Origin: a virus
DNA length: 14,831 nucleotides
Virus genome (UHGV): UHGV-0154790
Direction: 5' to 3' (one strand)
A program made the translations under genes and the position numbers. The notes under the pieces were generated by a model. It did not search any database. It saw only the letters and a program-made list of their open reading frames with translations, and was not told the origin of the DNA. This document shows, piece after piece, positions 2,401 to 12,892 of the stretch. How positions within the stretch are numbered: position 1 is the first letter of the stretch; each line of letters opens with the position of its first letter.

Positions 2401-2724
2401 ATGAAGATGCCAGAAAAACATGACCTGTTAGCCGCCATTCTCGCGGCAAAGGAACAAGGCATCGGGGCAATCCTTGCGTTTGCAATGGCGTACCTTCGCG
2501 GCAGATATAATGGCGGTGCGTTTACAAAAACAGTAATCGACGCAACGATGTGCGCCATTATCGCCTGGTTCATTCGTGACCTTCTCGACTTCGCCGGACT
2601 AAGTAGCAATCTCGCTTATATAACGAGCGTGTTCATCGGCTACATCGGTACTGACTCGATTGGTTCGCTTATCAAACGCTTCGCTGCTAAAAAAGCCGGA
2701 GTAGAAGATGGTGGAAATCAATAA
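2401..2724 (+). CDS. S: class I holin/antiholin S (dual-start, lambda S107/S105 type)
   Basis: 107 aa beginning MKMPEKHD (Met1-Lys2-Met3 dual-start motif); hydrophobic segments; sequence matches lambda S as recalled; overlaps the R start. Confidence 0.9.
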
Positions 2725-3184
2725 TCAACGTAAGGCGTTCCTTGATATGCTGGCGTGGTCAGAGGGAACTGATAACGGACGGCAGAAAACCAGAAATCAT
2801 GGTTATGACGTCATTGTTGGCGGAGAGCTATTCACTGATTACTCCGATCACCCTCGCAAACTTGTCACGCTAAACCCCAAACTCAAATCAACAGCAGCCG
2901 GACGTTACCAGCTTCTTTCCCGTTGGTGGGATGCCTATCGTAAGCAGCTTGGCTTGAAAGATTTCTCTCCGAAAAGCCAGGACGCTGTGGCACTGCAGCA
3001 GATTAAAGAGCGTGGCGCTTTACCGATGATTGATCGCGGTGATATCCGTCAGGCTATCGACCGTTGCAGCAATATCTGGGCTTCATTGCCGGGCGCTGGT
3101 TATGGTCAGTTCGAGCATAAGGCTGACAGCCTGATTGCAAAATTCAAAGAAGCGGGTGGAACGGTCAGAGAGATTGAGGTATGA
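2708..3184 (+). CDS. R: endolysin R (lambda-type lytic transglycosylase)
   Basis: 158 aa; [24 protein letters not shown] with the catalytic Glu in the WSEGT context; matches lambda R as recalled. Confidence 0.9.
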
Positions 3185-3618
3185 GCAGAATAACCGCGAT
3201 TATCTCCGCTCTGGTTATCTGCATCATCGTCTGCCTGTCATGGGCTGTTAATCATTACCGTGATAACGCCATCGCCTACAAAGAGCAGCGCGATAAGGCC
3301 ACATCCACAATCGCTGACATGCAGAAGCGTCAACGTGACGTAGCAGAACTCGATGCCAGATATACAAAGGAGCTTGCTGATGCTAACGCGACTATCGAAA
3401 GTCTCCGTGCTGATGTTTCTGCTGGCCGTAAGCGCCTGCAAGTCGCCGCCACCTGTGCAAAGTCAACGACCGGAGCCAGCGGCATGGGCGATGGAGAAAG
3501 CCCAAGACTTACAGCAGATGCTGAACTCAATTATTACCGTCTCCGAAGTGGAATCGACAGGATAACTGCGCAGGTTAACTACCTGCAGGAGTACATCAGG
3601 ACGCAATGCCTGAAATAA
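3181..3618 (+). CDS. Rz: i-spanin Rz
   Basis: 145 aa; N-terminal signal-anchor TM ([18 protein letters not shown]) then a charged, probably coiled-coil periplasmic domain; ATGA overlap with the R stop; contains Rz1 in another frame. Confidence 0.85.
3380..3565 (+). CDS. Rz1: o-spanin Rz1 (outer-membrane lipoprotein, embedded in Rz)
   Basis: Lies within Rz in a different frame; AAGGAG (3366-3371) 8 nt upstream of ATG 3380; signal peptide [20 protein letters not shown] with lipobox VSAC; Pro-rich mature part ([13 protein letters not shown]). Confidence 0.75.
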
Positions 3619-4708: not shown

Positions 4709-5059
4709 ATGCCGCCACGAACCCCAAAAGCCTGCAGTGTTCGCGGCTGCCGCCATACCACAACTGACCCGTCAGGCTATTGCGAAAGCCACAAAAGTGA
4801 AGGCTGGAAGCAATACAAGCCGGGCCAGTCCAGACACCAGCGCGGTTATGGTTCGAAATGGGATGTTATCCGTGAACGTGTGCTCAAGCGTGACAAAGGA
4901 CTGTGTCAGTTATGTCTGCGTGGTGGTGTGGTACGTGAGGCGAAAACCGTTGACCACATCATTCCTAAAGCGCATGGCGGCACAGATGCCGACAGCAATC
5001 TGCAGAGCCTGTGCTGGCCGTGCCATAAGGCGAAGACGGCCCGTGAACGGCTAAAGTGA
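4709..5059 (+). CDS. HNH endonuclease (terminase-associated, HK97 gp74-like)
   Basis: 116 aa; N-terminal Cys cluster (CSVRGCRH...YCESH) and C-terminal HNH motif DHIIPKAHGG...SNLQSLCWPCHKAKT; lies directly upstream of the terminase genes. Confidence 0.9.
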   Translation: MPPRTPKACSVRGCRHTTTDPSGYCESHKSEGWKQYKPGQSRHQRGYGSKWDVIRERVLKRDKGLCQLCLRGGVVREAKTVDHIIPKAHGGTDADSNLQSLCWPCHKAKTARERLK

Positions 5060-5184
5060 TAATAATTCTCAACTGTCTGAGGGGAGGGGCGGGTCAAATC
5101 CCTGTGACCTGGCGTCTTCCGGACTGCCCGCCCCATCGTTTTTTTATACCCGCGAAAAATGAAATTTAACCAGGAGTGCCGCAT
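5060..5184 (+). other. candidate cos region with GC-rich inverted repeats
   Basis: Intergenic between HNH and terS; GGGGCGGG (5086-5093) pairs with CCCGCCCC (5127-5134), nested GGTCA/TGACC (5092-5096 / 5105-5109), then a T9 run (5139-5147). HK97-type phages place cos between the HNH gene and terS. Confidence 0.4.
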
Positions 5185-5679
5185 ATGGCTGGAACGGCGG
5201 GGCGTTCCGGGCGTCGCCCCAAGCCAACGGCGCGCAAGGCGCTGGCCGGAAACCCCGGCAAGCGAGCCCTGAACAAAGATGAACCTGTTTTTACGCCCAT
5301 CAAAGGTGTTGAGCCACCAGAGTGGTTCGCTGAAGAAGATCTCCCTCTCGCCACGATCATGTGGCAACTGACAACCAAAGAACTCTGCGGTCATGGCCTG
5401 TTGTGCGTGACTGACCTCGCGGTGCTTGAGCGGTGGTGCGTGGCCTATGAGTTCTGGCGACGTGCCGTGAAAAATATTGCCATACAGGGCAACACCATCA
5501 CCGGTGCAATGGGCGGCAGGGTCAAAAATCCGGAGCTGACCGCCAAAAAAGAACAGGAGTCCGAGATGAGCAGCACGGGGGCAATGCTCGGACTCGACCC
5601 CAGCAGCCGCCAGCGTCTGATTGGCCTGGCGGGGCAGAAGAAAGCCACTAACCCGTTTCTGAAAATCATCGAGTCATGA
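5185..5679 (+). CDS. terminase small subunit (P27-like family)
   Basis: AGGAG (5172-5176) 8 nt upstream of ATG 5185 (the track's GTG 5176 lies inside the RBS); basic N-terminus; stop overlaps the terL start (ATGA). Confidence 0.8.
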
Positions 5680-7409
5680 GCCGGAAATCTTACCCCAACG
5701 TAAATGCTGCCAATCAGTATGCCCGTGATGTTGTGCGCGGAAAGATTGTGGCCTGCCAGTTTGTGATTCAGGCCTGCCAGCGCCATCTTGATGACCTGAT
5801 GGCGGAAAAAAGTAAGTCGTTTCGTTACCGCTTCGACAAGGACCTGGCTGAACGGGCCGCCAAATTTATTCAGCTGTTGCCGCACACCAAGGGTGAGTGG
5901 GCATTCAAGAGGATGCCCATCACGCTGGAGCCGTGGCAGCTATTTGTGGTCTGCTGTGCGTTTGGCTGGGTCAATAAAGGGTCCCGGCTGCGCCGCTTCC
6001 GGGAGGTGTATACCGAAATCCCCCGTAAGAACGGCAAATCGGCAATCTCTGCCGGTGTTGCCCTGTATTGTTTTGCCTGTGATAACGAGTTTGGCGCGGA
6101 AGTGTATTCCGGTGCCACGACAGAGAAACAGGCGTGGGAAGTCTTTCGCCCGGCGCGACTGATGTGTAAACGCACACCCATGCTGACGGAAGCGTTCGGG
6201 ATTGAGGTTAACGCCTCAAACATGAATCGTCCGGAGGATGGCGCGCGGTTTGAACCGCTGATCGGTAACCCCGGTGATGGTTCATCACCCCACTGTGCGG
6301 TGGTGGATGAATATCACGAGCACGCCACCGATGCGCTTTACACCACGATGCTTACCGGGATGGGGGCGCGACGTCAGCCACTGATGTGGGCCATTACTAC
6401 TGCCGGGTACAACATTGAGGGGCCGTGCTACGACAAGCGGCGGGAAGTCATCGAGATGCTCAACGGCTCGGTGCCCAACGATGAACTGTTCGGGATCATC
6501 TATACCGTTGATGAAGGTGATGACTGGACCGACCCGCAGGTGCTGGAAAAAGCTAACCCGAATATTGGCGTGTCGGTTTATCGCGAATTTTTGTTAAGTC
6601 AGCAGCAGCGTGCGAAAAATAACGCCCGTCTGGCAAACGTCTTTAAAACAAAACACCTCAATATCTGGGTGTCGGCGCGTTCGGCGTATTTCAACCTGGT
6701 GAGCTGGCAGAGCTGCGAGGATAAATCACTGACCCTTGAGCAGTTCGAGGGGCAACCGTGCATTCTGGCCTTTGACCTGGCGCGTAAGCTGGATATGAAC
6801 AGCATGGCGCGACTTTATACCCGCGAGATTGACGGTAAAACGCATTACTACAGTGTGGCTCCGCGCTTCTGGGTACCGTATGACACGGTGTACAGCGTCG
6901 AGAAAAATGAAGATCGCCGGACAGCCGAACGCTTTCAGAAATGGGTGGAAATGGGCGTTCTGACCGTTACCGATGGTGCGGAGGTGGATTATCGCTACAT
7001 CCTCGAGGAGGCCAAAGCGGCGAACAAAATCAGCCCGGTCAGTGAGTCACCCATCGACCCCTTCGGGGCGACCGGGTTGTCACATGACCTTGCTGATGAA
7101 GACCTGAATCCCGTCACTATCATTCAGAACTACACCAACATGTCCGACCCGATGAAAGAGCTGGAAGCGGCAATTGAATCGGGGCGCTTTCATCATGATG
7201 GCAATCCCATCATGACCTGGTGTATCGGCAATGTGGTCGGCAAAACCATTCCGGGTAACGATGATGTGGTGAAACCCGTCAAAGAGCAGGCGGAAAACAA
7301 AATTGACGGTGCAGTTGCGCTGATTATGGCGGTTGGCAGAGCCATGCTGTACGAGAAAGAAGACACGCTGTCTGACCACATTGAGTCCTATGGGATCCGC
7401 TCGCTTTAA
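5676..7409 (+). CDS. terminase large subunit (HK97 type)
   Basis: 577 aa; P-loop-like PRKNGKS with acidic motifs further on (VVDEYHE); size and position between terS and portal. Confidence 0.9.
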
Positions 7410-7420
7410 CTGAGGTAATT

Positions 7421-7603
7421 ATGATCATGCTGATTCTCGCGCCTCTGGTGGGCGTGCTGGGGGCGCTTTTGCTGGCGTATGGTGCCTGGCTGATTTATCC
7501 CCCGGCGGGGTTTGTTGTTGCCGGGGCGTTGTGCCTGTTCTGGTCGTGGCTGGTAGCGCGATATCTCGACCGTACACAGCTGTCTGTTGGTGGAGGTAAA
7601 TAG
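7421..7603 (+). CDS. small hydrophobic membrane protein (60 aa, two predicted TM segments)
   Basis: GAGG RBS 6 nt upstream of ATG 7421; two hydrophobic stretches ([23 protein letters not shown] and [16 protein letters not shown]); its stop TAG 7601-7603 overlaps the portal GTG start and its 3' end carries the portal RBS. Confidence 0.6.
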
Positions 7604-8844
7604 TGTTCTTTTCGGGATTATTTCAACGAAAAAGTGACGCACCGGTGACCACGCCAGCAGAGCTGGCGGATGCCATCGGGTTGTCCTACGACACCTATAC
7701 CGGAAAGCAGATCAGCAGTCAGCGGGCCATGCGACTGACGGCGGTTTTTTCCTGCGTCAGAGTGCTGGCAGAGTCGGTCGGGATGTTGCCCTGCAATCTG
7801 TATCACCTGAACGGCAGCCTGAAGCAGAGAGCCACCGGCGAACGTCTGCATAAACTGATCTCCACGCATCCCAATGGCTATATGACGCCGCAGGAGTTCT
7901 GGGAGCTGGTGGTCACCTGTCTGTGCCTGCGGGGAAACTTTTACGCCTACAAAGTGAAAGCATTTGGCGAAGTGGCTGAACTGCTGCCCGTCGATCCCGG
8001 CTGTGTGGTACCGAAGCTTAACAGTAGCTGGGAGCCGATCTATCAGGTCACATTCCCGGATGGCTCCACGGATGTACTGAGCCAGGAGGATATCTGGCAT
8101 GTGCGCACGCTGACGCTGGACGGACTGGTGGGGCTGAATCCCATCGCCTATGCCCGCGAGGCAATATCGCTGGCAGCTGCGACCGAAGAGCACGGGGCCA
8201 GACTGTTCAGCAATGGCGCGGTGACGTCGGGTGTGTTGCGTACAGAGCAGACGCTGTCAGATCAGGCTTATGAGCGCCTGAAGAAAGATTTTGAGGAGCG
8301 TCACACCGGGCTTGGCAATGCTCACCGCCCGATGATCCTTGAGATGGGGCTGGACTGGAAGTCGATGGCGCTGAACGCCGAGGACAGCCAGTTCCTGGAA
8401 ACCCGCAAGTTTCAGCTTGAAGAAATCTGTCGTCTGTTCCGGGTGCCGTTGCACATGGTGCAGAACACCGATCGCGCCACCTTCAACAATATCGAAGAGC
8501 TGGGGCTGGGATTTATCAACTATTCACTGGTGCCGTATCTGACCCGCATCGAACAGCGGATCAACACCGGACTGGTACGAAAAAGTAAGCAGGGCGTTTA
8601 TTACGCCAAATTTAACGCCGGGGCGTTACTGCGCGGGGATATGAAGTCCCGTTTTGAAGCCTACGCCACCGGGATTAACTGGGGAATTTACTCTCCCAAT
8701 GACTGCCGCGACCTGGAAGATATGAATCCGCGTCCCGGTGGTGATGTCTATCTCACACCGATGAACATGACCACGAAACCCTCCGATGGCAGTAAAGCCG
8801 GTAAGCAGAAGGATAACGCCAATGCAGACGAAACAACGTCTTGA
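7603..8844 (+). CDS. portal protein (HK97 family)
   Basis: 413 aa; GTG start with GGAGG 6 nt upstream; size and position after terL; C-terminal acidic, low-complexity tail. Confidence 0.85.
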   Translation: MFFSGLFQRKSDAPVTTPAELADAIGLSYDTYTGKQISSQRAMRLTAVFSCVRVLAESVGMLPCNLYHLNGSLKQRATGERLHKLISTHPNGYMTPQEFWELVVTCLCLRGNFYAYKVKAFGEVAELLPVDPGCVVPKLNSSWEPIYQVTFPDGSTDVLSQEDIWHVRTLTLDGLVGLNPIAYAREAISLAAATEEHGARLFSNGAVTSGVLRTEQTLSDQAYERLKKDFEERHTGLGNAHRPMILEMGLDWKSMALNAEDSQFLETRKFQLEEICRLFRVPLHMVQNTDRATFNNIEELGLGFINYSLVPYLTRIEQRINTGLVRKSKQGVYYAKFNAGALLRGDMKSRFEAYATGINWGIYSPNDCRDLEDMNPRPGGDVYLTPMNMTTKPSDGSKAGKQKDNANADETTS

Positions 8845-10741: not shown

Positions 10742-10942
10742 ATGATCCTGAAACAAGATCTGAAATGGTCACCGGACGGTATGCGTGTTGAGGTCATTCG
10801 GGCCGGTGAGTATGACGACGGGGCGCTTCCTGCCCGGGTGCAGGAGATTGCACTTCAGGCCGGGTTAGCAGAGCGCGGAATCAGTGCAAAAAGCAGTAAA
10901 GCGGCAAAAGAGAAAAAAGCCACGACCAGTAAAGAGGGCTGA
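10742..10942 (+). CDS. hypothetical small head-module protein (66 aa)
   Basis: ORF tightly packed between the capsid and connector genes; Lys/Ser-rich C-terminus; weak RBS (GGTGAAG). Confidence 0.5.
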   Translation: MILKQDLKWSPDGMRVEVIRAGEYDDGALPARVQEIALQAGLAERGISAKSSKAAKEKKATTSKEG

Positions 10943-12721: not shown

Positions 12722-12892
12722 ATGTTTGTCAAACCTGTTAAAGGGCGGTCAGTTCCTGACCCTGCCCGCGGCGACCTTTTGCCCGCCGAAGGGCGAAATG
12801 TTGACGAGAACAACTACTGGCTGCGCCGTGAAGCAGCGGGTGATATCCGGCGCGTGAATAAAAAGGTGAACACCGATGACGATAAGCTTTAA
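12722..12892 (+). CDS. small conserved phage protein (56 aa, DUF2635-like; absent from the ORF track)
   Basis: ATG 12722 with GAGGA 5 nt upstream; translation MFVKPVKGRSVPDPARGDLLPAEGRNVDENNYWLRREAAGDIRRVNKKVNTDDDKL; stop TAA 12890-12892 overlaps the sheath start at 12876 in another frame. Confidence 0.6.
   Translation: MFVKPVKGRSVPDPARGDLLPAEGRNVDENNYWLRREAAGDIRRVNKKVNTDDDKL

Follow-up and report, generated by a model that had tools for sequence, protein, structure and literature searches.

We analysed a stretch of 14,831 nucleotides (nt) of the virus genome UHGV-0154790, called the window below, which carries late genes of a prophage whose head is of the HK97 type and whose tail is contractile, and focused on a small gene at positions 7421-7603 that lies between the gene for the large terminase (terL) and the gene for the portal protein. 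The gene is already known as ymfR (PHROG 502), and its product of 60 amino acids (aa) is identical in sequence to YmfR of the e14 prophage of Escherichia coli K-12 (YMFR_ECOLI). Comparison across phages indicates that it is an old and widespread resident of the terL-portal junction, not an unusual insertion, and that the family gene is inherited with the portal gene and not with terL. The reading that we favour, with a probability of roughly 0.4, is that YmfR is an accessory factor of the portal or packaging vertex, which would act at the inner membrane during lytic growth.

Position of the gene beside the portal gene

To collect relatives of the protein, 1.84 billion representative proteins were searched with a profile, using no word index and a cut-off of E<=1e-3. 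This returned 382 family representatives, nearly all of them of 45-80 aa; the family has no Pfam entry. A motif scan of genomes, limited to one genome per species, gave 38 loci, and a scan of IMG/VR with the eight-residue pattern GAW[LM][IVM]YPP gave 551 relatives, from which 80 loci were taken, 78 of them with enough sequence. Finally, loci were drawn from IMG/VR by the homology of their portals, irrespective of the small open reading frame (ORF). The motif served as bait in the genome motif scan and in the IMG/VR pattern scan, but not in the profile search or the portal sampling.

The small ORF was found directly upstream of a portal homologue in 36 of the 38 motif-scan loci. These included contigs labelled Reyranella, Shinella, Rhodoferax, Geobacter and Ruminococcaceae, whose portals are 29-39% and whose terL products are 21-38% identical to those of the window. 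The start of the portal gene fell within -18 to +27 nt of the stop of the small ORF in 77 of the 78 evaluable IMG/VR loci. Among 94 loci, 88 had a start codon in the portal frame that shared 1 or 4 nt with the stop of the small ORF, and the two genes are usually coupled in translation by this overlap; the count somewhat favours overlap because the start codon nearest to the stop was chosen. Five distant profile matches could be traced to their contigs, and all five lay between TerL and the portal; four of these portals were assigned to PF04860 by precomputed hits and the fifth was recognised from its sequence. The family gene adjoins PF04860 portals that are only 29-40% identical, on contigs labelled Alpha-, Beta- and Gammaproteobacteria, Geobacter and Ruminococcaceae. 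It co-occurs with three types of prohead protease (S78, ClpP and S49), and it accompanies a sheathed tail in the window and is also found in the siphoviruses phiKO2 and PY54.

Three loci depart from this synteny. In L162 (IMG/VR, small ORF at 2531-2689), 753 nt separate the small ORF from the portal further downstream. The other two are genome contigs: in L034 other head-module genes, but no portal, come after the ORF, and in L038 the ORF stands among non-phage genes.

In the portal-based sampling of IMG/VR, the gene was always present where the portal was at least 71% identical to that of the window. At 40-69% portal identity the junction was either tight, with an overlap of 1-4 nt or a gap of less than 15 nt between terL and portal, as in HK97, or it contained a gap of about 150-480 nt. 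A hydrophobic ORF with two helices occupied such gaps; in some cases it had diverged beyond the reach of the family profile. The initial annotation of the window had described the gene as inserted into a junction that is normally tight. Tightness holds for HK97 and some relatives, but the hairpin gene has long and widely been established at this junction, ahead of PF04860 portals in several phyla, and the idea of an insertion is misleading.

Inheritance with the portal gene

Over 325 pairs of non-redundant loci, the divergence of the small protein was more closely correlated with that of the portal (Spearman 0.63) than with that of terL (0.37). The median identity of the small proteins was 60% where the portals were similar and the terL products unrelated, as against 33% where the terL products were similar and the portals unrelated.

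Phage SfV provides an individual example of this pattern: its terL is 97.5% identical to that of the window, its portal is 28% identical, and another hairpin ORF replaces ymfR. This unannotated ORF (locus L003, U82619.2, positions 2289-2450) encodes a two-helix protein of 53 aa, MKSLIADVIGLAGFGLLTCGVYLQFGMAPALILSGALLLVGALAMARRGTRAA, which scores 27.8 bits against the YmfR profile, and its ATG overlaps the terL stop. With its annotated start (GTG at 2392), the SfV portal gene runs through the hairpin ORF; the true start probably lies about 48 nt further downstream. Serratia supplies a second individual example of portal-linked inheritance.

Layout of the junction and coding character of ymfR

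The features of the junction in the window are the following.

5676-7409, plus strand: large terminase gene terL (Pfam TerL_ATPase 1.8e-26, TerL_nuclease 5.3e-34); its TAA stop ends at 7409.
7412-7416, plus strand: Shine-Dalgarno sequence of ymfR, GAGGT, ending 4 nt ahead of the ATG at 7421 (5 nt from the GAGG core).
7421-7603, plus strand: ymfR coding sequence, 60 codons and TAG, with an ATG start (ORF translation; identity to YMFR_ECOLI; PHROG 502 at E=1.5e-27; dN/dS 0.06-0.25).
7421-7495, plus strand: hydrophobic helix 1 (aa 1-25), with many small residues (G11, G14, G21); hydropathy peak 2.67, AlphaFold2 helix 2-25.
7439-7466, plus strand: terminator-like hairpin within ymfR, picked up by a consensus scan; the SfII record lists it as a putative terminator, but we consider it incidental.
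7496-7510, plus strand: tight turn YPPAG (aa 26-30), in the middle of the family signature; AlphaFold2 helix break at residue 26.
7511-7561, plus strand: hydrophobic helix 2 (aa 31-47), whose last residue is the conserved basic R47; 17-residue hydropathy 2.0, AlphaFold2 helix 27-56.
7562-7600, plus strand: variable charged C-terminal tail (aa 48-60), whose last codons form the portal ribosome-binding site; the tails of relatives vary, with GG[EDK] kept.
7592-7596, plus strand: Shine-Dalgarno sequence of the portal gene, GGAGG, within ymfR and 6 nt ahead of the GTG at 7603.
7601-7605, plus strand: stop/start overlap TAGTG (ymfR TAG, portal GTG), read from the sequence.
7603-8844, plus strand: portal gene (Pfam Phage_portal PF04860, E=6e-108).

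The gene fills the interval between terL and portal: 11 nt separate it from terL, and the last base of its TAG is the first base of the portal GTG (1-nt overlap). A ribosome-binding site of its own, a stop that overlaps the portal GTG and a small hydrophobic two-helix product of 60 aa had all been reported in the initial annotation and were borne out here, the last of them by hydropathy and by an AlphaFold2 model. The C-terminal GG[E/D/K] is conserved among the enterobacterial homologues because the portal GGAGG sits in the last ymfR codons.

ymfR is a genuine protein-coding gene of the late class. Its ratio of nonsynonymous to synonymous substitution (dN/dS), calculated by the Nei-Gojobori method over codons 1-49 against the diverged copies of phiP27, Mangrovibacter and Citrobacter (dS 0.13-2.2), was 0.06-0.25, with synonymous sites diverged up to saturation. 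The ORF was intact in 52 of the 52 IMG/VR loci with a portal at least 71% identical to that of the window. A broken frame was looked for in close and in distant relatives, and the sole disrupted copy seen was that of the second prophage of Shigella flexneri SFBU0723 (L013, 3501-3679), which carries a 1-nt frameshift in a part rich in G/C homopolymers.

Several protein clusters (P0021, P0023, P0082 and P0091-P0093 among others) have locally scrambled residues at the place where L013 is frameshifted, and this looks like the outcome of sequencing errors in GGGGG/CCCCC runs. In the e14-type remnant on E. coli chromosomes (L005 and L007), only residues 200-577 of terL and residues 1-139 of the portal are left, yet the ymfR between them is intact. 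An antisense ORF of 78 aa (7406-7642) was considered as a gene and rejected, as stops break it in diverged relatives. The hairpin at 7439-7466 was likewise rejected as a conserved internal rho-independent terminator: its fold energy has a z of -0.64 relative to shuffled sequences, and of its 12 pairs 10-11 are kept in the two closest copies and 3-9 in more diverged ones, with no compensatory pattern.

One might suppose that the short ORF is mainly a translational device, which delivers ribosomes to the portal start and whose peptide is of little function or a hitch-hiking remnant. The stop/start overlap is indeed the most constant feature of these loci, and the portal Shine-Dalgarno sequence explains the GG[EDK] codons. 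However, the amino acids are under strong purifying selection while synonymous sites are saturated, a specific motif is conserved across phyla, the portal gene has a strong GGAGG of its own, and relatives with a tight junction couple the portal straight to terL. We therefore give this explanation hardly any weight.

The window carries, in this order, genes for RusA, a Q-like antiterminator, holin, endolysin, Rz, a Rha-like regulator and an HNH endonuclease, followed by terS (5176-5679), terL, ymfR, portal, S78 protease, major capsid protein, connectors, tail sheath and tail tube. HNH endonucleases are encoded at two places, 513-803 and 4709-5059. The second stands just upstream of terS, a layout typical of HNH-assisted cos cleavage in HK97-like phages. 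Conserved small ORFs are also found between the capsid and adaptor genes (10742-10942, 66 aa, PHROG 1020) and just ahead of the tail sheath gene (12722-12892, 56 aa, PHROG 208). The longest protease ORF overlaps the 3' end of the portal gene by 59 nt (8786-8844); the SfII record has a later protease start, with an overlap of 23 nt.

Family conservation, fold and topology

The members of the family share the core [SA][YF]GAW[LM][IV]Y.PAG[FY]I..G, with the signature [SA][YF]GAW[LM][IV]YPPAG[FY]I, and the window protein has the motif [YF]GAWxIYPPAG[FY] at aa 20-31. Among the representatives of the profile search, the stretch around YPPAG is the most conserved, with column frequencies of 0.85 for W, 0.83 for P and 0.88 for G. 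G14, G21 and W23 are nearly invariant across the family, G35 is invariant, and an R or K is present at the end of helix 2 in 0.67 of the representatives.

Kyte-Doolittle hydropathy reaches a 19-residue peak of 2.67 at residues 1-19 and a 17-residue peak of 2.0 at residues 29-46, which delimits hydrophobic segments at about aa 1-25 and 29-47, with YPPAG between them and the basic tail ARYLDR...K after them. The AlphaFold2 model, built on a family alignment of 66 sequences, is a helical hairpin of short, Gly/Ala-rich helices at 2-25 and 27-56, with a mean predicted local distance difference test score (pLDDT) of 86.2; confidence is lower in the tail (mean pLDDT 65 for residues 51-60). Hydropathy and model together predict two transmembrane (TM) helices. 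Every charged residue sits after helix 2, and relatives with longer N-termini have Lys or Arg there. By the well-established positive-inside rule, YmfR is therefore predicted to be a protein of the cytoplasmic membrane with both termini inside (N-in/C-in) and with the conserved turn at the periplasmic face. Natural tandem duplications (P0152, P0169, P0181 and P0257) of about 100-120 aa, with two GAW..YPP.G units and four helices, are consistent with a topology in which a unit begins and ends on one and the same membrane side. One of these tandem forms, P0257, was traced to contigs (L045/L046, 2434-2760), where it remains adjacent to the portal gene.

For the window protein, no significant match came from Pfam, NCBIfam or PADLOC, and six distant members were likewise without a Pfam match. 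A profile search of the PDB returned nothing below E=1, Foldseek found no match in the PDB, and in BFVD it found only uncharacterised phage proteins at E>0.04.

The predicted architecture is compatible with that of class II holins, which have some 60-70 aa, two TM helices with an N-in/C-in topology and a basic C-terminus, and Gly-rich helices favour oligomerisation. In particular, pinholins of the phage 21 S21 type have two TM helices and a short basic C-terminus, as predicted for YmfR. The protein might then be a hairpin of the class II holin, pinholin or antiholin kind, which permeabilises or depolarises the membrane or times lysis relative to packaging. Unlike these pinholins, however, YmfR is encoded outside the lysis cassette. 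The window already has a full cassette at 2401-3618 (holin/antiholin of PHROG 126, endolysin and Rz-like spanin), 4.7 kb upstream of ymfR; in the loci examined the gene never lies next to an endolysin gene but between terL and portal, and no holin family was matched in Pfam or PHROGs. A role in lysis is thus very unlikely.

Expression and the moron question

Morons are independent transcription units and often compositionally distinct, whereas ymfR has a fixed position across phyla. A consensus scan of the plus strand from 6900 to 8100 found no sigma-70-like promoter. As for a flanking terminator of the moron type, a single terminator-like hairpin came up, which is internal to the ORF and unconserved. 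Both of these consensus scans are weak tests. The GC content at third codon positions (GC3) is 0.656 for ymfR, against 0.647 for terL and 0.679 for the portal gene, so that ymfR does not differ in composition from its neighbours, and a PADLOC scan of defence families gave 0 families at E<=1. In K-12, ymfR is induced along with other e14 genes by an SOS-inducing treatment (PMC10012262). With no promoter of its own found and, given the 11-nt gap and the overlap, no room for one, with a neighbour-like composition and no match to a defence family, ymfR does not look like a moron.

These results also bear on the exclusion-type role about which the initial annotation had speculated. According to this view, YmfR would be an inner-membrane hairpin, expressed from the prophage or late, that excludes superinfecting phages or blocks DNA entry, as HK97 gp15 or T4 Imm do. 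Genes for exclusion tend to occur sporadically and to depend on a given route of entry. The position of ymfR and its coupling to the portal gene are kept across phyla, whatever the tail type, and its inheritance is locked to the portal. Such a role is further weakened by the failure to find a promoter, the 11-nt gap to terL, the unconserved internal hairpin, the neighbour-like composition and the lack of a PADLOC match, as well as by the induced, not constitutive, behaviour of the K-12 gene (PMC10012262). A weaker argument comes from the proteome of a lysogen of a phiKO2-like telomere phage, in which none of the nine phage proteins was described as YmfR (PMC12042878), but a hydrophobic protein of 60 aa is hard to detect and the presence of the gene in that phage was not checked. 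On the other side, a small inner-membrane protein encoded within a late structural operon recalls the HK97 gp15 moron (PMC3594210), PHROGs places family 502 in the category 'moron, auxiliary metabolic gene and host takeover', and the absence of the gene from some related phages implies that it is not essential for virion formation. Taken together, an exclusion-type role is not favoured and appears unlikely.

A possible role at the portal and packaging vertex

As an accessory factor of the portal or packaging vertex, YmfR could, for example, anchor the portal ring, the nascent procapsid or the packaging motor to the membrane, or nucleate its formation there. Such a function would be accessory rather than core, because HK97 and other relatives with a tight junction do without the gene. 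Two known systems offer parallels. In T4, gp40 is a viral chaperone that acts on the membrane-bound gp20 portal initiator (PMC9958956), and by analogy the proposed role of YmfR would resemble that of gp40, as a phage factor tied to portal assembly at the inner membrane. The T4 head module is different, however, and a PHROG scan of YmfR at E<=1 gave only PHROG 502 and four unannotated families, with no gp40 family among them. In PRD1, P20 and P22, two small integral membrane proteins located at the unique packaging vertex, anchor the packaging ATPase and the portal-like protein (PMC5850374); in contrast to tailed phages, PRD1 has an internal viral membrane.

A more general form of this proposal, which we put forward only tentatively and consider on the whole doubtful, is that YmfR-like hairpins serve HK97-type portals of several phyla as an overlooked cofactor in the membrane. 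Arranged as a ring or patch in the cytoplasmic membrane, they would provide a dock for the dodecameric portal and thereby for the nucleation of the procapsid or for the packaging motor.

Several points weigh against a role of YmfR at the vertex. The case for it is one of genomic linkage, and adjacency alone can explain the co-inheritance with the portal. The hairpin ORF is present in only 7 of the 24 loci of the 40-69% portal-identity band, and HK97 and at least 9 sampled relatives are without the gene. To our knowledge, HK97-type head assembly needs no membrane. No fusion of the hairpin to portal, terL or another large ORF was seen among about 1,085 large frames of the loci examined, and the N-termini of the portals do not differ with the presence or absence of the gene, an amphipathic N-terminal motif occurring in both groups. 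The extreme conservation of YPPAG may reflect the needs of a tight membrane hairpin turn and not a binding site. Searches of Pfam and the PDB and with Foldseek found no characterised protein similar in sequence or fold.

The same linkage to the portal could be read differently, with YmfR as a virion-associated protein that is packed at or in the portal vertex and released to help the DNA across the cytoplasmic membrane of the recipient. A fixed stoichiometry could follow from the tight coupling to the portal gene, and in PRD1 the small membrane proteins of the unique vertex serve both packaging and delivery (PMC5850374). But a two-TM hairpin would find no internal membrane in a tailed phage, the gene occurs irrespective of tail type and is missing in HK97, and no virion proteomics reporting YmfR was found in the literature searched, all of which makes a place in the virion highly improbable.

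Previous annotation of ymfR and its homologues

The window protein is found on at least 1,000 contigs, and it matches PHROG 502 ("membrane protein") with E=1.5e-27 over residues 1-55. Of 5,426 complete E. coli genomes, 1,599 have a match to a 1.2-kb stretch spanning the junction, and in 1,160 the match covers 80% or more of that stretch; the RefSeq gene name is ymfR. Homologues are annotated as (putative) membrane proteins in the phages SfI, SfII, ST64B, 118970_sal3 and phiP27, and ymfR is also annotated in phiKO2. Those with a name (phiP27 L37, ST64B Sb3, SfII_03 and phiKO2 gp3) have no assigned function. In SfII, phiP27 and phiKO2 the homologue likewise lies between terL and portal, with an annotated overlap of the TAGTG type. 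A partial literature search found no study of the function of ymfR or its homologues, which are named only in gene lists, and no description of a family-wide linkage to the portal.

The family is also present without annotation in SfIV (KC814930/NC_022749), where the sequence is the same, and in PY54 (AJ564013/NC_005069). In the phages vB_EcoM-720R4, vB_EcoM-689R6 and vB_EcoM-606R7 and in Salmonella phage As1, the ymfR homologue is labelled 'head-tail joining protein W', which its sequence does not support. Lambda gpW is of similar size and its gene has the same position, between A (terL) and B (portal), but it is a soluble protein, whereas YmfR is a hydrophobic helical hairpin (grand average of hydropathy +1.29). 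We rejected the label, as there is no Pfam gpW match at E<=0.01 and the protein is hydrophobic; it is very likely a misannotation.

Some records have doubtful host labels. OR844959.1, 'Enterococcus phage Efm 3-10' (1,764 bp), has 92% nucleotide identity to the enterobacterial terL-ymfR region and is probably a contamination or a mislabelled record. The block of terS, terL, ymfR, portal, protease and capsid genes in a metagenome-assembled genome of a 'Bacillota bacterium' (L006, JAEWTL010000102.1) and in Edwardsiella hoshinae NBRC 105699 (L004) is 97-100% identical at the protein level to that of an E. coli/Shigella prophage. The former contig looks mis-binned, and the Edwardsiella case would be a recent transfer or a contamination.

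Implications

In practical terms, this is a family that has no Pfam model, that goes unannotated in SfV, SfIV and PY54 and that is mislabelled as 'head-tail joining protein W' elsewhere. The gene is found in K-12 itself and in the plaque-forming phages SfI, SfII, phiP27 and phiKO2. The accepted pathway of HK97-type assembly contains no membrane protein, although the system is among the best studied. If the more general proposal of a membrane cofactor is true, head assembly or head filling would take place at the membrane in many HK97-like phages, as in T4, by means of a component that has been overlooked because it is small and often unannotated. A small membrane protein that is locked to the portal gene across several phyla and is under purifying selection would be either an overlooked accessory of assembly or packaging, or a very old passenger with a host-directed role.

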